Below are positions 16,034 through 54,691 of a DNA stretch of 64,000 nucleotides, piece by piece (the first letter of the stretch is position 1; every line of letters begins with the position of its first letter). The stretch spans positions 1 through 64,000 of the forward strand of contig JAUWOR010000008.1 in NCBI GenBank assembly GCA_030612025.1. The letters run 5' to 3'. The notes beneath the pieces were generated by a model. The model made no database searches. It was given only the letters and a program-made list of their open reading frames with translations, and was not told the DNA's origin. The DNA comes from Dehalococcoidia bacterium (GTDB taxonomy: Bacteria; Chloroflexota; Dehalococcoidia; GIF9; AB-539-J10). A program made the position numbers and the translations under genes.

Positions 16034-16144
16034 AGAGCATTGGCAAAGGCTTCTTTGATACCAAGTCTTTTTGAGTTATAGGTAGCTCTGTTTGCTTTCA
16101 CCCATAGCGAGCTAAGAGAAGCATCTGCTATAATGGGCATTAGT

Positions 16145-17665
<1,521 letters not shown>

Positions 17666-22687: not shown

Positions 22688-22760
22688 AGCCCACAACCAG
22701 ATTCGAACTGGTGACCCCGTTCTTACCAAGAACGTGCTCTACCAACTGAGCTATGTGGGC
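22688..22760 (-). tRNA. tRNA-Thr(GGT)
   Basis: Cloverleaf; anticodon arm CGTTC-TTGGTAA-GAACG. Confidence 0.95.
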
Positions 22761-22776
22761 ATATTCTACCACATTT

Positions 22777-22863
22777 TGGTGGAGGGGGTAGGATTCGAAC
22801 CTACGCAGCCCAACGGGCGGCAGATTTACAGTCTGCTCCGATTAACCACTCCGGCACCCCTCC
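22777..22863 (-). tRNA. tRNA-Tyr(GTA)
   Basis: GCAGA-CTGTAAA-TCTGC, long variable arm, encoded CCA. Confidence 0.95.
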
Positions 22864-22904
22864 CATCTTTAGTTTACTATAAAGTGCCTAGAAAAATCCA
22901 ACCC

Positions 22905-22977
22905 AGCCCGAGAGGGGACTCGAACCCACTAACCTACCGATTACAAGTCGGTTGCGCTACCATTGCGCTACTCGGGC
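22905..22977 (-). tRNA. tRNA-Thr(TGT)
   Basis: ACCGA-CTTGTAA-TCGGT. Confidence 0.95.
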
Positions 22978-24889: not shown

Positions 24890-24926
24890 TTCACTATAGT
24901 AGCTGCAGGGGCATACCTGCGTTACC
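24890..24926 (-). mobile_element. Putative attR: element arm joined to a comM 3'-half remnant
   Basis: Minus strand GGTAACGCAGGTA-TGCCCCTGCAGCTACTATAGTGAA; the last 24 nt match comM TGCCCCTGCGGCTATTATGGAGAC at 19/24. Confidence 0.6.
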
Positions 24927-25362
24927 TTCCTGCAAGGTGATCCTGAAAGCTCGAAAACCAGTTTCGGCTGCCTATCCCTAGGCATTAAGGACATTAGGCG
25001 ACCATCTAAGAAAAAGGCGGCTTGATCTGAAGCCTCTCCAGAGAGAGGTTGCTCGAAGGATTGGTGTTGATGAGGCCACTGTCTACAACTGGGAAAATAA
25101 CCGAATATCTCCCTCTCTCTGTCTTATCCCCAAGATTGTTGAATTCGTCGGCTATGTGCCTTGTGGTACCTCACCAAAAAGCTTTGGAGAAGGGATACTC
25201 ACCTCTCGTCAATTTCCTGGCCTCAGCCAAAAGGAGTTAGCTCATCGCTTAGGCATCGATCCAAGCACCCTTGGTCGTTGGGAAAGAAATAAAAACCAAC
25301 CTTCGAAAAAGCTCTTGGGGGAACTAGCGACTTCTTTGACTTCCCTCCCTCGAAGCGGCTGA
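24904..25362 (+). pseudogene. Double XRE-HTH regulator with in-frame TAG at 24979
   Basis: GIPALPSC..AYP*ALRTLGDHLRKRRLDL..VYNWE..GLSQKELAHRLGIDPSTLGRWE in a single frame. Confidence 0.75.
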
Positions 25363-25609
25363 GTTTCCCTAAATTTTCCACAAACTCTGAGACAGGGTTG
25401 ACCAGGCATGGTATAATGGACGGTGGCGGGTCGTCTCCGAACATCGGCGTAGAGGTTCGTAGGCGCCTCACTCGGGAACGAAGAGGAAGTAACAGCTTTT
25501 TTGCCCGCGCGGCGGCTGGGCAGACACGTTCCGCTTCTCACTTGAGACATTGCAGCGTTTTCAGTCCCCTTTAGGGCGTATCCCAAGCAAAGTCGATGCG
25601 CGGGCCTTG

Positions 25610-25841
25610 CGTGTCTGTTGTCTCGAATACCTCATGCTTCCCTGAGATTTGTGGAAATGCCGCACTGATGGTCGAACCGCACGATATTGATTAGCTGGCT
25701 ACGAGTATGTGGCAGCTCATAAGTGACGACGATTTGAAGGAGACGCTTAGAGAGAAAGGGTTGGAGCGTGCCAAGATATTCAGTTGGCAGAGGCGCGCAC
25801 AAGAACATTTGAAACTATATCAAGAGCTGTTCAAAGCATAG
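25610..25841 (+). pseudogene. GT4 glycosyltransferase C-terminal remnant
   Basis: VVSNTSCFPEICGNAALMVEPHDID*LA..KGLERAKIFSW. Confidence 0.7.
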
Positions 25842-25937
25842 GCTGAGTGGTGCCTATGGTAGAGTGTCTTCCACCTAGGGTGGGCAAGCACTACAGGTTA
25901 AGCTGCCTACACCGAAGGCATCCTCCTGGAGGTAAGT

Positions 25938-27122
25938 TTGAAGATCGCTTTCATTGCACCTGGTGTTCATCATCAAGCAGGACCAGAAAGAGTCACCGCT
26001 GCACTGGTCGAGAGGCTTTGTGAAGACCATCAGGTTTCGGTTTTCTCTCACACTATCGAGGGAATCGACCTATCCAAAATTAAGCACCATAGGGTGCCAG
26101 CAATTATGCATCCCGAGTTCTTAAGGTACATTTCCTTCCTGGTATCCAGTACCATCATCCTTGCCGTTCTTTCCCTCTTCAGGAAAAGAGACTTTGATAT
26201 CATCCATGGGTATGTTTGTGCTTTTTCCACTGATGTTATCACCTTTCATTTCTGTGAGAGGGAAGGCCTTCGTCTCGAAGAAGCCAACATAATTGAGATA
26301 CCGCATAAGGGTGCATGGCAAAAACTGAAAGCCCTTGACCATAGGATATATCGCAGCTTGGCAGTCTTTGTTGAGGGGCTAATATTCGGCCACAATAGCT
26401 CCAAAGCGCGCATCGCCGTTTCAGAGCGCATGAAAAAGGAGTTCATTCGCCACTACGGCCATGTCGCCAAAAGTATTATCGTAATCCCCAATGGGGTAAA
26501 TTCAAAGATGTTTACCCCAGCCAATCGGTCACTTTATAGGGATTGGGTCAGACGAAAGCACAGCATATCACGTGGCGACTTAGTACTAATGTTCGCTGGG
26601 GGTGATTGGGAGAGAAAAGGAGTGTCTTCTATCATAGAAGCGCTTTCGCTGGTTCCGAGGCCGCATGTCAAACTTTTGATTGTTGGTAGTGGCGATGAGA
26701 AATTCTATGGTCAACTTGCGCAGCAAAAGCAGGTGAGAGAAAGAATAATCTTTGTTTCTCACAGCAAAAACCTTTGGGAATATTATGCTGCTAGTGATGT
26801 ATTCGTTTTCCCTACCATATATGAGCCCTTTGGTCTGGTCATCCTCGAGGCCATGGCCAGTGGCTTGCCTGTAATAACCAGCCGCTCAGCAGGAGCAGCT
26901 GACTTTCTGACTGATGGGGTCGACGCCCTTCTGTTGGGCAATCCGGGTGACATAAACGACTTGGTAGCAAAAATCGAGTTGCTGCTTTCAAACAGCGAAC
27001 TTAGAAAGACGATGGGTGAGCGCGCCAGGGAGACCGCAGAAAAACTTTCGTGGGAGCGGGTAGCTGAAAAAACCCTAGAGGTCTATAATAGGGTACCAAA
27101 GCGGGAGAGGAGGGTAGCGTAA
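25938..27122 (+). CDS. GT4 glycosyltransferase
   Basis: IPNGV, RKG, YEPFGLVILEAMASGLPV. Confidence 0.92.
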   Translation: MKIAFIAPGVHHQAGPERVTAALVERLCEDHQVSVFSHTIEGIDLSKIKHHRVPAIMHPEFLRYISFLVSSTIILAVLSLFRKRDFDIIHGYVCAFSTDVITFHFCEREGLRLEEANIIEIPHKGAWQKLKALDHRIYRSLAVFVEGLIFGHNSSKARIAVSERMKKEFIRHYGHVAKSIIVIPNGVNSKMFTPANRSLYRDWVRRKHSISRGDLVLMFAGGDWERKGVSSIIEALSLVPRPHVKLLIVGSGDEKFYGQLAQQKQVRERIIFVSHSKNLWEYYAASDVFVFPTIYEPFGLVILEAMASGLPVITSRSAGAADFLTDGVDALLLGNPGDINDLVAKIELLLSNSELRKTMGERARETAEKLSWERVAEKTLEVYNRVPKRERRVA

Positions 27123-27130
27123 CAACTAGC

Positions 27131-29131
27131 GTGCTTAGAGACTTACCTGTAGGCAATGGCAACCTACTCATCAATTTCGATACCGCTTACAACATCCGGG
27201 ATATCTACTATCCTTATGTCGGCATGGAGAACCATGCCGGAGGTTGTGTATCACGTACTGGCATCTGGGTTGACGGAAGCTTCGCATGCATTGACAGCCC
27301 CGAGTGGCAGAAGGAAATGACCTATGAAAGCGAGACTCTGGTCACCAGTGTTACTGCCGCTAATCCTGCCCTAGGGCTCACCCTGACCTTTTCTGACCTC
27401 GTGGACTTTCACAGGGACATCTTCTTCAGGCGGGTTGTTGTAGTCAACCACCGAGATCACCCCCGCGACGTACGCCTATTCTTCCATTATGAGCTACGGA
27501 TTCTAGGCAGCAGAATCGGCGATACTATCTACTACCACCCGGGATTGAAAGCGTTGGTGATGTACAAAGGACGGCGTTATTTCCTGGCAGGTGGCCAGGT
27601 GAATAGAAGGACTGGCATTGACGACTGGACAACCGGAAGCACAAGATCAGAAGATAAGTTAAGTGCATGGCGCGATGCCGAAGATGGCCAATTGGGAAAG
27701 GTGCCTCTTACGTGTGGATTCGCTGAGGGAGTTATGGGGCTGTATGACAACGCTGTGCCCGCTAGGGGAAGCTCAACGATTTATCACTGGCTGGCGGCAA
27801 GCACCCGCTTCCATGGAATCGAGGAACTTGATGCCTTGGTTCGCGAGCGTGGACCTGAGTCATTCATTATGCGCACCCGTGATTATTGGCGAGCTTGGGT
27901 GAATAAGGAATCGCTAGACTTTGTCGACCTGCCGACTCCTATATTGGATTTGTACAAACGCAGCTTGCTCAGTATGCGCGTGCAGATCGATAACCGCGGT
28001 GCCATCATCGCTAGCACTGACTCGGACATCACCGAGCTCTCAGGGGATACCTATTCTTATGTGTGGGGTCGTGACGGTGCCTTCGCAGCTAAGGCCCTCG
28101 ACATGGCCAACTATGATGAAGTCAGTCAGCAGTTCTTCGATTTTTGCGCCCATGCCATTACCAGTGAAGGTTACCTGCTTCACAAATATAGCTCTGATGG
28201 GTGTCTTGCAGGCCACTGGATACCCTGGGCAGATGAGGAGGGTAAGCTGCAACTGCCAATTCAAGAGGATGAGACTGCTTTGGTAATATACAGCCTTTGG
28301 CACCATTACAACAAGTTCCGCAATGTGGAATTCATTCGTTCCCATTATCGAAAGCTGGTTAAGAACGCTGCCGATTTTATGCTCAGCTATAGAGAGCCTC
28401 ATACGAAGCTTCCGGCACCTTCATATGACCTTTGGGAGGAACGGCGTGGCATTCACTCTTTTACGGTTGCTGCGGTCTGGGCCGCCTTACAAGCTGCGGC
28501 GAACTTTACAGAAATGTTTGGTGAGGTAGCACTCACAAAACAGTGCCGTCAGGCTGCTACTGAGATAAAGGAGGGTGCTATTGAGTATCTTTTTGACAAG
28601 AGGTTGGGACGCTTCCTGCGCTCGATCAAGGTTGACGGCAATGGTGTGGTGGAACCGGACTACACTATCGATAGCAGTATTTGCGCTCCTTTTCTCTTCG
28701 GGATGCTTCAATCTACTGATCCCCTTATTGAAAGCACGATGGCGGCACTTATAGACAGGCTTTGGTGTAAGACCAAGGTGGGAGGCATGTCGCGCTACGA
28801 GAACGACCGCTACCAGCAAGTCAGTCAAGACATCGCCAATATCCCCGGTAACCCCTGGTTCATCTGCACTATGTGGGTGGCACAATACTATATTGCCAGG
28901 GCTCAATCGGTGGATGATCTCAAGCCGGCCCTCCAGATCCTCACCTGGGCTCAGCATTGTGCTCTCCCCAGTGGTGTACTTGCCGAGCAGGTTCATCCCC
29001 ACAGCAGTGCCCCGCTCAGCGTATCGCCGCTGACTTGGAGCCATGCCACCGTAGTGATAGCAATCCACGAATATATCGATAAGTACCGTGAACTTCAAGC
29101 ACAGCTACACCATAGGGAAAAAGGTACATAG
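27131..29131 (+). CDS. Glycoside hydrolase family 15 (glucoamylase/trehalase-like)
   Basis: GAIIAS, YSYVWGRDG, QEDETA, DLWEER, LAEQV, PLTWSHA. Confidence 0.92.
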   Translation: MLRDLPVGNGNLLINFDTAYNIRDIYYPYVGMENHAGGCVSRTGIWVDGSFACIDSPEWQKEMTYESETLVTSVTAANPALGLTLTFSDLVDFHRDIFFRRVVVVNHRDHPRDVRLFFHYELRILGSRIGDTIYYHPGLKALVMYKGRRYFLAGGQVNRRTGIDDWTTGSTRSEDKLSAWRDAEDGQLGKVPLTCGFAEGVMGLYDNAVPARGSSTIYHWLAASTRFHGIEELDALVRERGPESFIMRTRDYWRAWVNKESLDFVDLPTPILDLYKRSLLSMRVQIDNRGAIIASTDSDITELSGDTYSYVWGRDGAFAAKALDMANYDEVSQQFFDFCAHAITSEGYLLHKYSSDGCLAGHWIPWADEEGKLQLPIQEDETALVIYSLWHHYNKFRNVEFIRSHYRKLVKNAADFMLSYREPHTKLPAPSYDLWEERRGIHSFTVAAVWAALQAAANFTEMFGEVALTKQCRQAATEIKEGAIEYLFDKRLGRFLRSIKVDGNGVVEPDYTIDSSICAPFLFGMLQSTDPLIESTMAALIDRLWCKTKVGGMSRYENDRYQQVSQDIANIPGNPWFICTMWVAQYYIARAQSVDDLKPALQILTWAQHCALPSGVLAEQVHPHSSAPLSVSPLTWSHATVVIAIHEYIDKYRELQAQLHHREKGT

Positions 29132-29329
29132 CCCACTTATCTCGGTCTTTGAGTCTCCTGTTGAACAATTCGGCTTTTTGTTCAAATTAGTCTAGCAAAT
29201 TTGGGAAGAGTTCGTCTTCCGCCAATTCCTAGTAAGGAAATGCTTTTTGGCAGTGCTATTCTCCTCTCTCCTTTATACCTCCAGAGGTGTAAATATTTTT
29301 CCCTTAGTTCTTCAAATGGCTAATATCCC

Positions 29330-29542
29330 CTGGGGCTAGGTCGACGCTGATGTGCCCGGTGGGGGGACTTGCAGCCAGAGTTTCTTATGGCTGACCGCAC
29401 CCTTTCTCTGGCCTCCTGAACCGCCTTGTCTGGCAAGCCTACGATTTGTTAACGAAGGCAACCTAGATGATATGTCAACCTCCACCTCCACCAGGGCTCC
29501 TTCCAGCCCCACCACGGCGCAGCTCAAAACTTTAGCTAGCAT
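29330..29542 (-). pseudogene. comM: comM 5' fragment, frameshifted and truncated
   Basis: MLAKVLSCAVVGLEGALVEVEVDIS, then in shifted frames [24 protein letters not shown] and ISVDLAP; a diverged paralogue of the gene at 16145. Confidence 0.88.
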
Positions 29543-29716
29543 ATCGGGTTAATTACATCAAAGGCTGGTACCCACTAGTAGACATATGGTTTGGTGCTGA
29601 TAACGCATAGCATGGTGGGGAATGTTAGACATTATATCCCTATAGCCAAATCCCTTCTCAAAAGCTGCTCCTATCAAATCTTAGGTTTTTGCCAATACTA
29701 TCTCTCTTTTTCCAAC

Positions 29717-29747
29717 GTTGTAATTACATTCCGCACCGGCAGGGGTT
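29717..29747 (-). mobile_element. comM-hybrid att site copy 1
   Basis: Plus GTTGTAATTACATTCCGCACCGGCAGGGGTT; minus reads AAC CCC TGC CGG TGC GGA ATG TAA. Confidence 0.75.
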
Positions 29748-29819
29748 TTACTACTACAGCGTTTCAGTTACTACAGCATTTCGCCTTACTGGGCTGCTAG
29801 TTCGAAGGCTCGAAGCTTC

Positions 29820-29906
29820 GAACAACGTTTCGCGAATAAAAGATGTTTGCCTTAGCAAATTTGGGCGAGAGTACATAGCACCGTAGCCTTTTAGCCGCCA
29901 TTATAC
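29820..29906 (-). mobile_element. Degenerate integron attC
   Basis: Minus GTATAAT..CGGCTAAAAG..CTCGCCCAAAT..CTTTTATTCG..GTTGTTC; shares CTCGCCCAAAT with the attC at 30232. Confidence 0.5.
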
Positions 29907-29942
29907 GTAGCGAACGAAATAAAATAATCAGCCAGGGAATGC

Positions 29943-30143
29943 CTATTTCCCAAGCACTTTATATACCGGTTTTATTGCTGCTAACACAAAAATTATAGCA
30001 TACCAATACCAATCTAAACTGAGCAGTGGTCCCCAAAGTTTCGCTATCATTAAAATACAACCTGCAACACTCAGTTTCATGAACTGGATATCAATCCAAT
30101 TCAACTTTTTTATTTTTGCATCTGCCAAAGTTCCAAAAGTCAT
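29943..30143 (-). CDS. Small membrane protein (gene cassette)
   Basis: 66 aa, 2 TMs, AAGGAGG RBS, lies between attC sites. Confidence 0.7.
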   Translation of the reverse strand: MTFGTLADAKIKKLNWIDIQFMKLSVAGCILMIAKLWGPLLSLDWYWYAIIFVLAAIKPVYKVLGK

Positions 30144-30231
30144 ATTTTTATACCTCCTTTCTATTTAAATTCAGCCTCTATTTATACTAAAATTCAGGTG
30201 GTTTAAGAATTTGCCTCCCGAAGCCAATTGC

Positions 30232-30701
<470 letters not shown>

Positions 30702-30866
30702 TCACCTCCAGGATATCGTCTAACAGCCATATAAACGAACTCTGGATTCGCCCAGTCCGCTGTGGCTTATCAAATCTTGGCATCTGTCACAGTAGCCGTC
30801 AAGCTAATTGCAACCACAATTGCAGGGCCCCTCATTATCTTCCTAACAGGGCCACTCCCCCCAAAA

Positions 30867-30891
30867 GCTGTAATTGCATTCCAGACGGACA
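30867..30891 (-). mobile_element. comM-hybrid att site copy 2 (degenerate)
   Basis: Plus GCTGTAATTGCATTCCAGACGGACA; minus TGT CCG TCT GGA ATG CAA. Confidence 0.55.
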
Positions 30892-30928
30892 TTTGTGGAT
30901 AATGTGATTGAAGTGTATTTCCTCATTG

Positions 30929-31366
30929 TCAACTGAACCCTCTTTGTTTAAATGCTGCAGCATTCTCGGCCATCTTCTTCAGGAGGTCAAGGGCAAGCTG
31001 TCTTTCATTCTCTGTAAATCCGGTGGCCAGACCTTCAGTCCAGTGTTCTAAAGCTCTTTCTATCCTGGGCACGACGTCTTTGCCTTTAGCTGTCAGAGAA
31101 AGCCTGTAAAACCGCTTGTCCTGGGAATCACGGTTTTTCGCCACATATCCTAGCTCCACCAGCTTCTTAATTGCTCGCGCCGTCGTCGTTTTATCCATGC
31201 CGAGTGCTTCACTCAATTCGTCCTGGCTCAATCCATCCTGCTGATAAAGAACACGGATAAAGGGCAAATGACCTCCCTTGACATCGAGTTCAGCAAACTC
31301 TTTGTCTATAAAACTACGGCTGTACCTGTGAATGATAGAGACCCACCTGCCTAATGACTCGTTCAT
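30929..31366 (-). CDS. MarR family regulator
   Basis: LSQDELS..DKTTTARAIKKL..DKR..LTAKG. Confidence 0.93.
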   Translation of the reverse strand: MNESLGRWVSIIHRYSRSFIDKEFAELDVKGGHLPFIRVLYQQDGLSQDELSEALGMDKTTTARAIKKLVELGYVAKNRDSQDKRFYRLSLTAKGKDVVPRIERALEHWTEGLATGFTENERQLALDLLKKMAENAAAFKQRGFS

Positions 31367-31372
31367 CGTGTA

Positions 31373-32734
31373 TCACCCCGCTTCCATTAGAATTTGCTGT
31401 TTCTTGAACTCACGCATCTGGGGAATAACCATAGCAAGCGTTATGATAAAGGATAATGTATCGGCGATTGGGAATGATAGCCATACCCCATTAAGTCCGA
31501 AGAAACGTGGCAGAATGAATACTAAAGGGATGAGAAAGAGAATCTGCCTGGATGTAGAGAGAATGAATGTTTGAATTGGTTTTCCAATTGCCTGAAATAT
31601 GGTTGCGCCAACAATCTGAAATCCGACCAGCCAAAGTGCCATAAAGATAAGCCTTATTGCATGGGTGCCTTGGGATATAAGGGCAGCATCCGTGGAAAAA
31701 AAACGTATAATCGGCTCAGCGAAAAGGAGGATGATTAAGACAGCACCGACGGAAAAGGCCGCCGCAATAATAACGGACCGGCGTATTACTTCTATTCCCC
31801 TGTCATAACGCCTCGCACCATAGCTGAAACCAAGGATTGGCTGGAGTCCCTGAGCAATACCCATATTCGGCATTACGGCAAAGTGCAGCACCCGATGTAC
31901 CACACCAAAAACTGCTATGGAGACATCCCCACCGTAAAAACCAAGAGTCCTGTTAATAATGACAGCAATAAAGCTTCCTGCTGCAGTCCTTACAAACACA
32001 CCGAATCCTATGGCTACAATTTCCTTGACTACAGTCCGCTCAAGAATAAAGTTTTTCACCCGAATTCGTAGGGAACTCTTTCCAGAGAGAAAATAATGCG
32101 CCAGATACAGGGTGGTGACAACATGTGCAATAACCGTTGCAATTGCAGCCCCCCGGATACCCATGCCAAGGGCAAAGATGAAAACTGGGTCAAGCGCAAT
32201 GTTTAAAAGAGCACCTATAAACATGCTTATCATTGCCACCCGGGCATTGCCTTCCGCCCTGATAATAGCATTGGCTGCCATAGAGAATCCGTGGAACACC
32301 ACGCCGAGAAGAATTATATCCATGTATTCTTTTGCGTAGGGTAGAATGGTGTCCGTAGCTCCAAAAAGACGGAGAAGGAAAGTGCTTCTTGACAATGCCA
32401 CAACCGCTAACGTTCCCCCAAGAATAAGAATCAAAATTATGGCATTACCCAGTGTACGTTCCGCCCTTTTCATATTGTCAGCACCCAGGCTTCTAGAAAT
32501 AAGGGAAGCTGCCCCTATTCCTACCATCAGCCCTATGCCCATTATTACCATCTGGATTGGGAAAACAATGGAAATGCCGGCGATACCCAGAATACCCACT
32601 CCTCGACCAACAAAAATCGCATCTACGACGTTGTAGAGAGACATAACGAACATGCCTGCCATCGCTGGGAGAGAGAGTTTCCACAGCAATGTTTTTATGG
32701 GTTCGCTAGCTAGAGCTACACTGTGGTCATGCAT
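31373..32734 (-). CDS. MATE efflux transporter (MepA-like)
   Basis: YNVVDAIFVG, NIALDPVFIF, GIRGAAIAT. Confidence 0.93.
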   Translation of the reverse strand: MHDHSVALASEPIKTLLWKLSLPAMAGMFVMSLYNVVDAIFVGRGVGILGIAGISIVFPIQMVIMGIGLMVGIGAASLISRSLGADNMKRAERTLGNAIILILILGGTLAVVALSRSTFLLRLFGATDTILPYAKEYMDIILLGVVFHGFSMAANAIIRAEGNARVAMISMFIGALLNIALDPVFIFALGMGIRGAAIATVIAHVVTTLYLAHYFLSGKSSLRIRVKNFILERTVVKEIVAIGFGVFVRTAAGSFIAVIINRTLGFYGGDVSIAVFGVVHRVLHFAVMPNMGIAQGLQPILGFSYGARRYDRGIEVIRRSVIIAAAFSVGAVLIILLFAEPIIRFFSTDAALISQGTHAIRLIFMALWLVGFQIVGATIFQAIGKPIQTFILSTSRQILFLIPLVFILPRFFGLNGVWLSFPIADTLSFIITLAMVIPQMREFKKQQILMEAG

Positions 32735-32753
32735 AACTTATTCAAATCCCTTC

Positions 32754-32805
32754 ATCAGTTGTAAATACAACTGATTATATCAAGGCATAGTTGTAAATAC
32801 AACTA
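32754..32805. promoter_or_regulatory. Tandem palindromic MarR-type operators
   Basis: AGTTGTA-AA-TACAACT twice (32754-32775 and 32788-32805), upstream of MATE-marR. Confidence 0.75.
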
Positions 32806-32889
32806 ATCTTTGAAGTAGCCTTCCAGTAGAATTTGAGTGGAAGGCAGAAGGTTATTTATCTCCCAGCCAGAACCATTTCCCGCTCTAAA

Positions 32890-32923
32890 GTTGTAATTAC
32901 ATTCCGCATGGGCACGGATTCAT
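32890..32923 (-). mobile_element. comM-hybrid att site copy 3
   Basis: Minus ATG AAT CCG TGC CCA TGC GGA ATG TAA TTACAAC = MNPCPCG plus arm. Confidence 0.78.
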
Positions 32924-33603
32924 GGGTACATGCTCCTTAGTTCCTCTACAATTCTCCTCTCTTCCGTAAGTTTCTCTCTTTGCTCCGGGGTTAGGCGAGT
33001 TTGGTATTCAGCAAGCTTACGGTGTAACCTTTCCATCTCCTTACCGGGTTTCGCCCCCTCGAAACCAGACATTGCAGGAGTTTCTTTAACTCCTTCGGCT
33101 AGGCCGATTTTAGCAGCAATCCTCGGATACCATGATGGTCTAAAAAACCCGGCAGTTAACCAGTCTCCAAACCGCACTATCAGAATGTCAATATACCGCA
33201 TAGGTGGAAAGAACCACCGCACAACCCCGCCTTCCTGACCTGTCACAGCACGCAATAGGGTGCCTCCTCCAGCATACAAGAAACATAGCGTGAGAAGAAA
33301 ACAGGGCAGGCAGAGGATGACGAGGATCAGACTCCAAAAACCACCAGTGCCAACCGCACCAAAGATAAAGCTGAAGATAAGGCCAAACATAGACCAGACA
33401 AAGGCCAATACCAGGTAACCAGTGCCCCTGTACTCAGGTGGCTCTAGTTCGCTTAGTTTGGCGCCTCTTACTTCTGGATTAACGGCACTATGTTTGCCGG
33501 CAACAAATAATAGAGCAGCAGCCGTCAATGAGAGGCCAGCAAGAATAGCAAAGAAAGAGGGAGAAAGTAATCTACCCAGTCTTACTAAGATTTCCATGGC
33601 CAC
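32920..33603 (-). CDS. Hypothetical membrane protein
   Basis: Three hydrophobic segments and a coiled-coil tail; its stop codon overlaps att copy 3. Confidence 0.7.
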   Translation of the reverse strand: MAMEILVRLGRLLSPSFFAILAGLSLTAAALLFVAGKHSAVNPEVRGAKLSELEPPEYRGTGYLVLAFVWSMFGLIFSFIFGAVGTGGFWSLILVILCLPCFLLTLCFLYAGGGTLLRAVTGQEGGVVRWFFPPMRYIDILIVRFGDWLTAGFFRPSWYPRIAAKIGLAEGVKETPAMSGFEGAKPGKEMERLHRKLAEYQTRLTPEQREKLTEERRIVEELRSMYP

Positions 33604-33758
33604 CTCCCTTCAAACTAGCTCCGACAAATATTTAAGGATAGCATAACAAATTTGAATGTGATGGAGCTAGTTGCAATCTCTATCGCTGAGCGATTTGACA
33701 GAATTTTGCGGATGAAATGATTACCCTAGTCCCTTCTCAAACAACTTTCCACCCCAAC

Positions 33759-33789
33759 GTTGTAACTACATTCCGCACGGGCAAGGGTT
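33759..33789 (-). mobile_element. comM-hybrid att site copy 4
   Basis: Minus AAC CCT TGC CCG TGC GGA ATG TAG TTACAAC. Confidence 0.75.
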
Positions 33790-33913
33790 TAGCTCCATTC
33801 TAAGATATTGACCATCACGCGAACGAGGACTAAACTCAAGTCCCAAAAGTTGATTATCACCTCTGAAAATCTGGTAATATTAAAAAGGGGGAAACGTAAG
33901 AAAGGAGACAGCT

Positions 33914-34966
33914 ATGAAGATTATTGACCTGCGAAGTGATACGATAACCCTCCCCACAGAGGATATGCGCCGAGCCATGTATGAGGCTGAAGTAGGAGAT
34001 GACGTTTATAAAGAGGACCCCACCGTTAATCTCTTAGAGGAACTAGCTGCCCGCATGTTGGAGAAAGAGGCTGCTCTCTTTACAGCCAGCGGAACTATGA
34101 GCAACCTTATTGCTATCCTGACATATACCCGCCACGGCAATGAAATCATCATGGGCAGTGAAGCTCATATGTTATGGGCCGAGGTTGGCTCTGCATCTGC
34201 CTTAGGTGGAGTCGTGATGAGGACTGTTCCCAACGAGCAAGACGGCCGGCTGGACCTTGGTATGGTGGAGCAAGCTATTCGACCAGAAAATATCCACTTC
34301 CCTCAGACTACGCTCCTCTGTCTAGAGAATACCCACAATCGCTGTGGTGGCACTGTTCTGACTCCTGAATACACATCTACTATCGCCGAACTCGCTCACC
34401 AACATGGACTTCGGGTTCACCTGGACGGAGCACGCATTTTCAACGCCGCCGTTGCCCTTGATGTGCCTGTAAGTGAACTGGTTGCACCCGCGGATTCTGT
34501 CTGCTTCTGCCTCTCCAAGGGCCTCAGCGCTCCCGTGGGCTCTCTCCTGTGTGGGACTCAGGAGTTTGTAGCGAAGGCCCGCAAGTGGCGTAAGATGCTG
34601 GGAGGAGGAATGCGCCAGGTGGGAATCATCGCTGCCGCTGGCATCATTGCTCTTCAGAAAATGGTTGCGCGTCTGGCTGAAGATCACGCTACTGCCCGGC
34701 ACTTAGCGTATGGGCTAGCCAACATCCCCGGCATCACCGTTCACCCTGACAGGGTTCAAACCAACATCGTGATGTTTGAGCCTCCGATTACCATCCCCGC
34801 TCCCGAGTTCATCCAACGGAGCAGTGCCCGGGGTGTTAGGTTCGGCTCTCTGGGTGGGCGAAGAGTGCGGGCCGTCACGCACCGCATGGTCACAAAGGCA
34901 GATATAGATGAAGCCCTGAACCGTATTGAGTTTCTTGTCAGAGAAACAGAGTCAGAAGCCCATTAG
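33914..34966 (+). CDS. ltaE: Low-specificity L-threonine aldolase
   Basis: DLRSDT, SGTMSN, LENTHN, HLDGARIFNA, CLSKGL. Confidence 0.95.
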   Translation: MKIIDLRSDTITLPTEDMRRAMYEAEVGDDVYKEDPTVNLLEELAARMLEKEAALFTASGTMSNLIAILTYTRHGNEIIMGSEAHMLWAEVGSASALGGVVMRTVPNEQDGRLDLGMVEQAIRPENIHFPQTTLLCLENTHNRCGGTVLTPEYTSTIAELAHQHGLRVHLDGARIFNAAVALDVPVSELVAPADSVCFCLSKGLSAPVGSLLCGTQEFVAKARKWRKMLGGGMRQVGIIAAAGIIALQKMVARLAEDHATARHLAYGLANIPGITVHPDRVQTNIVMFEPPITIPAPEFIQRSSARGVRFGSLGGRRVRAVTHRMVTKADIDEALNRIEFLVRETESEAH

Positions 34967-54044: not shown

Positions 54045-54117
<73 letters not shown>

Positions 54118-54126
54118 CTTTGAAAT

Positions 54127-54201
54127 GCGGAAGTAGTTCAGCGGTAGAATGCTTCCTTGCCAAGGAAGAGGTCGCGAGTTCGAATCTCGTCTTCCGCTCC
54201 A
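54127..54201 (+). tRNA. tRNA-Gly(GCC)
   Basis: CTTCC-TTGCCAA-GGAAG, encoded CCA. Confidence 0.95.
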
Positions 54202-54220
54202 TCTGAAAGGGGGTAAACGC

Positions 54221-54305
54221 GCCGAAGTGGCGGAATGGTAGACGCGGCAGTCTCAAAAACTGTTGGGAGGCAACTCCCGTGTCGGTTCGAATCCGACCTT
54301 CGGCA
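54221..54305 (+). tRNA. tRNA-Leu(CAA)
   Basis: GCAGT-CTCAAAA-ACTGT, long variable arm. Confidence 0.95.
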
Positions 54306-54313
54306 GTAAGCAA

Positions 54314-54384
54314 TGCCGGGTTGTGTAGCGGTAGCACGAAGGACTTTGGATCCTTTAGCCCTGGTTCGAATCCAGGCCCGGCAG
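54314..54384 (+). tRNA. tRNA-Gln(TTG)
   Basis: AAGGA-CTTTGGA-TCCTT. Confidence 0.93.
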
Positions 54385-54415
54385 CTCTTTTGGCCTGTTA
54401 GAAAAGGAGGTGGAA

Positions 54416-54610
54416 ATGGAAATAAGCTTGGCCCGGCGGAAGTTGCCACCGGTTCCTGGGCTTCCCAAAGTGGAATTGCCTGAAGTGGTGGTCAGACTAC
54501 CTGGGAAGATAGAGGCAAAATGGGAGGAGTTGGAATTGGTATCAATAGAATTTTGCCCCGCCGCCCCTAAGGGCACTAAGTTTATCTTTAAGGAAAAACG
54601 AACCCAATAG
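54416..54610 (+). CDS. Small hypothetical protein inside the tRNA operon
   Basis: AAGGAGGTG RBS; 64-aa ORF fills the Gln-Asn spacer. Confidence 0.55.
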   Translation: MEISLARRKLPPVPGLPKVELPEVVVRLPGKIEAKWEELELVSIEFCPAAPKGTKFIFKEKRTQ

Positions 54611-54616
54611 CTTTGT

Positions 54617-54691
54617 TCCCTGGTAGCTCAATGGTAGAGCAGGCGGCTGTTAACTGCAAGGTTGTAGGTTCGAATCCTACCCGGGGAGCCA
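54617..54691 (+). tRNA. tRNA-Asn(GTT)
   Basis: CTGTTAA loop, GTTCGAATC T-arm, encoded CCA. Confidence 0.92.

Follow-up and report, generated by a model that had tools for sequence, protein, structure and literature searches.

Introduction

The closest known system to the one described here is that of the tandem ssrA islands of Dehalococcoides, as portrayed in the portions of PMC3146451 drawn on here: these islands are bounded by 20-bp ssrA repeats, a serine recombinase of 540 amino acids (aa), DsiB, is encoded beside attL, a ParB-domain gene is found in the module, and members lacking an integrase were read as cis-mobilizable elements gathered by accretion. In this study we analysed a stretch of 64,000 nt from a Dehalococcoidia bacterium (positions 1 to 64,000 of contig JAUWOR010000008.1, assembly GCA_030612025.1; hereafter the window), in which four repeats of about 56 bp stand between modules of ordinary cargo genes. 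These repeats are probably attachment (att) sites of integrative elements that target comM in Dehalococcoidia, the primary target being the MNPCPCG codons 352-358.

The array in the window is like the ssrA islands in that it occurs in the same bacterial class and in that its units are bounded by direct repeats copying part of a single-copy target gene. It departs from the ssrA islands, as the same portions of PMC3146451 present them, in its target, a coding motif inside comM instead of the 3′ end of ssrA; in its place, a secondary look-alike site instead of the target gene; and in its units, which go down to 0.7-1 kb and have no DsiB-like gene beside any site. The preliminary description of this DNA had offered the array as a candidate new gene-accretion system, which was overstated, since tandem islands bounded by target-gene repeats, some of them without an integrase, are known from Dehalococcoides ssrA (PMC3146451, same portions).

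For the sr1WO serine recombinases of phage WO, the Mg-chelatase gene of Wolbachia is the attB, and the part of PMC9203015 used here also describes a secondary att site that is intergenic. A ChlI/ComM-type gene of the Mg-chelatase family as attB, gene pieces flanking the element and a secondary site are thus common to both systems; on the other hand, the host of phage WO belongs to another phylum, the WO elements are full prophages with their own recombinase, and tandem cassettes without a recombinase do not belong to the sr1WO description in that part of PMC9203015. Islands of the cis-mobilizable element (CIME) and integrative and conjugative element (ICE) type grow by repeated integration at a regenerated att site and leave cargo-only remnants behind (as cited in the portions of PMC3146451 named above). 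Flanking sites and the lack of an integrase were observed for the units studied here, which would be cis-mobilizable if an integrase-bearing element with the same att sites moved them.

The tycheposons of Prochlorococcus reportedly are also islands that grow by site-specific integration beside a regenerated att site. Unlike the sites studied here, those of CIME/ICE islands and tycheposons, to the extent of the accounts available, lie at tRNA or other gene ends and have a recombinase in some members of the array, whereas none was present in the arrays that we examined. Integrons hold same-orientation arrays of short sites between small, promoterless-looking accessory modules, and attC clusters without an integrase exist. 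The present array shares with them the short sites in one orientation, the small and diverse cargo modules and the absence of an integrase; unlike integrons, it has no IntI and no attC-like symmetry, its crossover is not at G/TT, its conservation is linear over 56 bp and one of its half-sites comes from the target gene.

Results

A family of 56-bp sites

The core GTTGTAAYTACATTCCGCA was found at 29717, 32890 and 33759 of the window (plus strand). At three mismatches or fewer, the window gave 3 core matches against 0.01 expected, a number reached in 0 of 100 shuffles; the genome (1,400,681 bases in 19 contigs) held no GTTGTAAYTACATTCCGCA copies beyond these 3, and the reversed control gave none. 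A weight matrix of 56 columns was then made from 38 site copies, all of them outside the genus of the window. It scored the four copies as listed in Table 1, the next-best match in the window reaching 5.1 bits and five shuffles peaking at 0.2 bits or less, so that the degenerate copy at 30844-30899, with its 17.6 bits, is real too. All four copies of about 56 bp are intergenic and lie in the same orientation on the minus strand; the matrix scores and the shuffles confirmed this part of the preliminary description, copy 2 included. When the four intergenic regions were aligned, the likeness was limited to about 50 nt and the flanks were not shared. The distance between the array and the intact comM is 7-16 kb; unrelated genes surround the array, which is not anchored at the target gene.

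A scan of related genomes with the site motif had been proposed, and it disclosed a family. TGYGGAATGTARTTACAAC at one mismatch or none was present in 31 of 202 genomes of the order, the reversed control giving 0 in every genome; the carriers were 18 of 118 genomes in family f1, 11 of 77 in f2 and the single genome of f5, with 0 of 3 in f3 and 0 of 2 in f4. When one genome per GTDB species was scanned for exact matches, 41 stretches were obtained, 26 of them titled Dehalococcoidia, Dehalococcoidales or Chloroflexi; the remaining 15, in other phyla, were treated as chance because, by our own arithmetic, tens are expected by chance in 596 Gb. A longer pattern retrieved 47 metagenome stretches, and viral contigs gave one match, on a 160-kb contig.

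Judged by the information content of 39 non-redundant copies, the conserved stretch extends from -14 to +41 relative to the T of TGCGG and measures about 56 bp. A 10-bp palindrome (TGTAATTACA) is placed near the middle of the site, and no dyad extends beyond it. The short left half would be a mimic of the comM side of the target (ATGAAYCCNTGCCCGTGC), and the longer right half a constant arm (GGAATGTARTTACAAC plus about 23 nt). Neighbouring copies on one contig run in the same direction in 24 cases and in opposite directions in 1, at a spacing of 0.7-7.6 kb (from 685 bp); this count comes from the 22 loci with at least two copies among 56 loci examined, and it includes several pairs, spaced at about 998 bp, that are probably one locus in related populations. 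Genome G081 has three copies 1.1 kb apart plus a fourth, more degenerate one, and in genome G001 two very degenerate copies lie beyond the threonine-aldolase-type gene. In a metagenome contig (L133, 8210-8310), the left half (ATAGAGATAAACCCATGTCCGT) is doubled 50 nt upstream with unrelated sequence after it, an arrangement resembling P-O-B′ just before P-O-P′ in the notation of the model given below.

The arm between +19 and +42, which is outside the constraint of the search pattern, was found to vary with a period of 3. In the frame of an open reading frame (ORF) of 17-22 codons starting from (G/A)TG at -1, 54% of the single-base codon differences are synonymous, compared with 48% in its antisense partner frame and 9-17% in the other four frames. 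Two origins come into question for the coding-like arm: a genuine micro-ORF or, on the opposite strand, a recombinase gene whose 3′ end survives as a fossil. The left half has no coding-frame preference across the family, with 17-35% synonymous differences in all six frames; the different wobble bases pointed out earlier are therefore a property of the window copies and not of the family as a whole.

Relation of the sites to comM

The comM gene of the window (16133-17665) is intact and encodes all three Mg-chelatase domains. To relate it to the sites we used a left-half matrix spanning -14 to +4 and made of copies from other genera. Its best match in the window was the real comM at 17187-17205 (codons 352-358) with 23.9 bits, ahead of site copies at 23.4, 23.4 and 16.3 bits and with shuffle maxima of 11.3-16.4 bits. 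Since a matrix from other genera ranks the real comM first, the likeness is not an effect of selection, and the derivation of the left half from the MNPCPCG codons of comM, as suggested before, was borne out.

Both kinds of junction were seen in real comM. On the metagenome contig L127, the 5′ part of a true comM (aligned by tblastn to residues 4-358 of the window ComM, 65% identity, E 2.9e-147) ends in ...FMLVGAMNPCPCG and is followed by a Met codon and a stop from the arm GGAATGTAGTTACAAC, with 208 nt of the element before the contig ends. The arm at the junction of a comM-split element had been named as the thing to look for and its absence as grounds for rejection; as L127 has the arm inside true comM, these grounds fall away. 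The opposite junction was found in the one-contig genome G188. Here the 3′ part of comM from CPCGYYGD meets, at ..TGC/GGC.., a left arm that for about 60 nt shares homology with the left flank of a site copy in genome G189 (L051:3552); in both genomes the left arm adjoins genes for an HNH-like protein and a ParB-domain protein (methylase). Separate comM 3′ fragments were noted at G188:C1 16830-17024 and 19615-20102 (L072/L073), covering residues 445-509 and 350-509, and no 5′ part was found with this query; comM appears to be lost in G188. From the L127 and G188 junctions together with the pairs of copies that share flanks, the exchange is placed between -1 and +4, within TGCGG (Cys357-Gly358). 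One Met codon past the exchange, the arm contributes a TAA or TAG, which would end the truncated ComM at once.

A comM fragment had also been claimed within the array. comM sequence is indeed present there, in the form of a separate 5′ pseudogene at about 29300-29542 (minus strand), distinct from the site; residues 5-36 are matched at 78% identity, after which the likeness goes on through frameshifts as far as about residue 80. Given its DNA identity of about 79% to the resident comM, it is foreign and not a local duplicate. Two further candidates for comM junctions were discarded: L037 is preceded by a sugar-kinase-like ORF, and a GTDB pattern for comM fused to the arm gave 4 matches, all of them intact comM genes that naturally read CPCGMY.

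Gain and loss of modules and reassortment of flanks

Congeneric genomes and metagenome contigs were compared with the window, and modules were found to vary in presence, with breakpoints at or beside the sites, as had been anticipated. G001 lacks 24902-29762 (helix-turn-helix (HTH), GT4 and GH15 genes, the comM pseudogene and copy 1) and has about 31 other bases instead; G002 lacks 24908-29762, with about 25 other bases instead, as well as 29834-30866, one breakpoint of which is at the edge of the copy 2 core (30867). The stretch up to copy 1, referred to as module 1, is missing from G001, G002 and the metagenome runs X6 and X10. The metagenome joints were taken from contigs (not reads) of 4 runs from 4 studies at a likeness of at least 88%, uncovered parts not being counted, and the forms may come from related species rather than from the same population. 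Forms without module 1 join 24907 to 29763 (with 25 letters between) and 24904 to 29799. A form without the glyoxalase gene (30210 to 30808) was present in 3 runs, one without MATE-marR and copy 2 (30830 to 32856, with a side of 43) in 1 run, and one without copy 4 and the threonine-aldolase gene (33735 to 35097/35100) in runs X4 and X6.

Flanks were also found to reassort. In a genus other than that of the window, G189 and G032 both have a 6,549-bp module (95.7% identity) between two sites; the outer flanks differ, and the homology starts 7 nt before TGCGG. When all pairs of 43 copies were compared, both flanks were common in 3, only the left in 4 and only the right in 2.

Proposed course of integration

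In the model that we favour, a full site would be P-O-P′, P being the comM-like half, O the exchange region at TGCGG and P′ the constant arm, and comM itself would be B-O-B′, with strand exchange at or beside TGCGG. Integration into comM would then produce two ends, B-O-P′ (the L127 form) and P-O-B′ (the G188 form). Owing to the mimicry of B by P, which covers about 18 nt, the P-O-B′ end would again be attB-like and could take the next element, and repeated entry would lead to B-O-P′ (unit) P-O-P′ (unit) ... P-O-B′, arranged head to tail with the newest unit beside B′. We infer such serial integration, along with the exact crossover and the enzyme behind it. Further movement would need an enzyme acting in trans, because the modules hold ordinary cargo and no recombinase.

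The window is consistent with this layout, with four P-O-P′ sites followed by GGAAGGTAACGCAGGTATGCCCCTGC/AGCTACTATAGTGAA at 24926-24890. The sequence of this complementary site, which the preliminary description had set apart from the other copies, reads as claimed there, and its right part resembles the comM stretch GGCTATTATGGAGAC (12 of 17 bases in the G002 version). Its meaning was taken from the synteny breakpoints, the motif score alone being insufficient. The array would thus occupy a secondary site that resembles comM and lies 7 kb away from the intact gene. Module 1, the unit beside the B′-like end, is the very one missing from G001, G002, X6 and X10.

Table 1. Coordinates of the putative target, the sites and the modules in the window (a slash between sequences marks the proposed exchange).
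Feature	Position	Strand	Remarks
Putative primary target, comM codons 352-363 (ATGAACCCCTGCCCCTGC/GGCTATTATGGAGAC)	17186..17220	+	Unoccupied here; top match of the left-half matrix
Candidate terminal P-O-B′-like (attR-like) site	24890..24926	-	GGAAGGTAACGCAGGTATGCCCCTGC/AGCTACTATAGTGAA; left breakpoint of the module-1 indel at 24901-24907
Module 1	24927..29693	mixed	XRE-type double HTH, GT4 fragment, GT4, GH15, comM 5′ pseudogene
Module 1, XRE-type double HTH	~24990-25300	+
Module 1, GT4 C-terminal fragment	~25600-25840	+	..AKIFSWQRRAQEHLKLYQELFKA; remnant just before the intact GT4 gene
Module 1, GT4	25938-27122	+
Module 1, GH15	27131-29131	+
Site copy 1	29694..29749	-	42.0 bits; junction of the putatively newest module
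Glyoxalase-family gene (30303-30695) and 66-aa ORF (29943-30143)	29763..30843	-	Indels end in TTGC/GC microhomology, not at a site
Site copy 2, degenerate	30844..30899	-	17.6 bits
MATE-marR module	30929..32734	-	MATE efflux gene 31373-32734, marR 30929-31366 (Pfam); own operator palindromes 32757-32807
Site copy 3	32867..32922	-	68.4 bits; ATG of the copy overlaps the TGA stop of the 227-aa gene
227-aa membrane protein module	32920..33603	-	No Pfam family
Site copy 4 (P-O-P′ type)	33736..33791	-	..AAACCCTTGCCCGTGC/GGAATGTAGTTACAAC plus ~23 nt; 58.4 bits
Threonine-aldolase-type gene	33914..34966	+	Pfam; varies together with copy 4

Recombinase genes and comM as an integration target

The statement that no recombinase is present held for the array, and the whole genome of the window was found to be free of serine recombinases: it has no resolvase or large serine recombinase (LSR) domain, and tyrosine recombinases are represented only by two Xer-like genes plus a fragment, all located on other contigs. 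A phmmer search of the genome loci with two LSRs found only the LSRs of other junctions (comM codon 36 and the dnaN 3′ end). An LSR lies within 2 kb of a site in 1 of the 47 metagenome loci (L133, a 517-aa serine recombinase 1.85 kb away). The ORFs within 3 kb of 124 site contexts formed no recurring family, and no tyrosine recombinase was found near the sites of G009, G032, G189, G081, G177 and G188.

LSR domains occur in 74 of the 202 genomes of the order, and comM was matched in 178 of the 202 and is intact in most. In G040 (L071, G040:C19) it is split at codon ~348 by a 14-kb element with a 541-aa LSR, the stop of which is at the junction. LSR elements split it at codon ~36 in G106:C13 (L119/L032), G081:C89 (L068) and G201:C2 (L074); these elements give the 3′ part of comM a new GTG start, so that residues 34-510 stay open in a 478-aa frame. 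Three positions of comM, codons ~36, ~348 and 358, are thus used in this order. A large serine recombinase is our leading guess for the enzyme of the 56-bp sites, and a tentative one, for which the LSR-split comM genes of G040, G106, G081 and G201 and the LSR of L133 are context. That the enzyme is of some other kind, or that none is now active, seems less probable to us, and a tyrosine recombinase slightly less probable again.

A serine recombinase family was also noted at the dnaN 3′ end, overlapping the last codons (L055 4271-5830, L051 14325-14894). Each of the two dnaN loci has a comM-type site array at a distance of 1-2 kb; this proximity suggests that the dnaN recombinase and the comM-type array share one hot region.

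Other identities tried for the sites, and neighbouring features

Several known kinds of repeat were tried and rejected. The integron integrase model TIGR02249 gave 4 partial matches of at most 54 bits against a cut-off of 265, in the two Xer-like genes on other contigs (PF00589). An attC identity was set aside, as there is no hairpin fold, only the 10-bp palindrome, and the breakpoints are at TGCGG rather than at a GTT box; the two attC cassettes of the preliminary description accordingly found no support, neither attC sites nor an integron integrase having been found. An Xer/dif site was dropped because 171 of the 202 genomes, near-complete ones included, lack it at one mismatch or fewer, and there is no switch of GC skew at the locus and no dyad beyond 10 bp. 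A miniature inverted-repeat transposable element or repetitive extragenic palindrome (MITE/REP) was dismissed in view of the 3-4 copies per genome in one locus, the 24:1 orientation and homology that ends without inverted repeats.

Among the modules, the MATE-marR operon was also found in G024, in another context and without a site. The palindrome AGTTGTAAATACAACT occurs twice upstream of it (32757-32775 and 32789-32807) and is kept in G024; the two copies are probably the MarR operator. Their half-sites GTTGTA/TACAAC look like the att-site core. Near position 33677, between the start of the 227-aa gene and copy 4, about 122 extra bases are present in G001, G002 and G003, and the 227-aa gene is of 278 aa in G001. 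The wider region is flanked by tRNA clusters at 22688-22977 and 54045-54691 (Thr, Tyr, Thr; Phe, Gly, Leu, Gln, Asn), which have no relation to the site.

Discussion

The site family, its comM origin, the two junction types in real comM, the gain and loss of modules and the reassortment of flanks are observations, and we regard att sites of comM-targeting integrative elements as the probable explanation for them. A number of results nevertheless weigh against this explanation. Copies directly beside comM (70-80 nt upstream and antisense in G106 and L131, 30 nt past the stop in G201) are not predicted by the simple model. Taken alone as a motif, the site at 24890-24926 reaches 10.1 bits, which is not above chance. 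The metagenome joints come from contigs only, at a likeness of at least 88%, and some of their sides are just 29-43 nt long. Away from the sites, the indels 30210/30808 and 29833 (G002) end in microhomology of 2-5 nt (TTGC or GC), and 25 nt of the empty module-1 site are missing from the filled form; given these extra bases, module 1 did not move by clean cut-and-paste, unless later divergence of the site accounts for them. A direct repeat of 56 bp could also serve as a substrate for RecA-dependent deletion. Furthermore, no recombinase gene was adjacent to a site in the loci examined, and no LSR domain was found in the array-bearing genomes G000 (that of the window, 95.6% complete), G009 and G032 (98% each). 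By eye, the site arm and the arms of two LSR elements have ..AATGT..T.ACA.. in common; their homology was dropped, as the arm matrix misses the type a and type b junctions.

Some of these results would fit a dispersed repeat on which no recombinase acts any more, or ever did, the module differences having arisen by homologous recombination or slippage between 56-bp direct repeats. Besides the two nearby indels with plain microhomology and the several array genomes without a matching recombinase, the switch points differ among the flank-sharing pairs, lying at -8 to -1 in one and at +19 in others, with a mismatch patch up to +35 in one. However, every switch point fits a single crossover at -1 to +4 when the invariant core is allowed for, one module stands in differing contexts in two congeners, and the precise comM junctions and the 24:1 bias require targeted insertion and not deletion alone, so that we hold the dispersed repeat to be quite improbable. 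The sites might instead be cis-regulatory, either an operator of a dimeric regulator on TGTAATTACA or a leader encoding the micro-ORFs MNPCPCGM and MRNV[IV]TT[LI]ERE... Each window copy is placed 155-175 nt upstream of the start of a minus-strand ORF, the core is like the presumed MarR operator (GTTGTA-NN-TACAAC at 32757-32807), and the period-3 variation of the arm, with its 54% of synonymous differences, would suit a micro-ORF. Elsewhere, however, neighbouring genes are antisense or distant (all genes of the G081 array run against the sites), the downstream genes have no common function, and there is neither an Rfam match nor a consensus structure: the scan of the window at the Rfam gathering threshold gave 10 tRNAs only, and RNAalifold predicted 0 pairs over 34 copies. 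Regulation also leaves the comM junctions and the flank reassortment unexplained; these, together with the module variation, mark the copies as recombination sites and not operators, which had been raised as a possible refutation, and a regulatory role is largely refuted and in our judgement very improbable.

A different kind of mobility was considered in the form of an integron-like cassette system, in which single-gene circles would be excised and put back by a host enzyme or by a recombinase whose gene is located elsewhere, and the likeness to comM would come from comM being one natural docking site. The many units of about 1 kb with 1-2 genes (as in G081, and with spacing from 685 bp), the orientation bias of 24:1, the varied accessory cargo (a HEPN/MNT-like pair, exonuclease, MATE, glyoxalase), the lack of any array with a recombinase in cis and the metagenome contigs that gain or lose units singly all speak for it. 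It is opposed by the lack of an integron integrase (TIGR02249 stayed below its cut-off) and of a conserved fold (0 predicted pairs in 34 copies), by array ends without a recurring platform gene or common promoter and by the mixed gene orientation inside units; some units, moreover, are of 5-7.6 kb with phage-like genes (HNH, ParB-methylase) and fit decayed islands better. We consider such a system unlikely, though less so than the dispersed repeat. Returning to the att sites of comM-targeting elements, one can go further and picture a directional cassette system that is not an integron, with units of 0.7-7.6 kb each bringing a 56-bp comM-mimic site, the docking site rebuilt at each entry, growth at one end, a recombinase supplied in trans by a transient phage-like helper, and look-alike sites that spare comM. 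This extended form is at present doubtful.

What sets the present case apart from the known systems is the internal comM motif as target, the look-alike site of the array, the many small units and the absence of a recombinase from every array examined. Dehalococcoidia have small, streamlined genomes with few recognizable mobile elements and a quick turnover of accessory genes. The 56-bp site gives a handle on gene gain and loss in lineages of marine sediments, as it is searchable, delimits cassettes and is open to biochemical testing, and with it the comM gene of Chloroflexota, a member of the Mg-chelatase family, joins the genes that are repeatedly hit as integration targets. Should small cassettes be moved by a recombinase that works solely in trans, the outcome would be integron-like gene collecting on a different chemistry.

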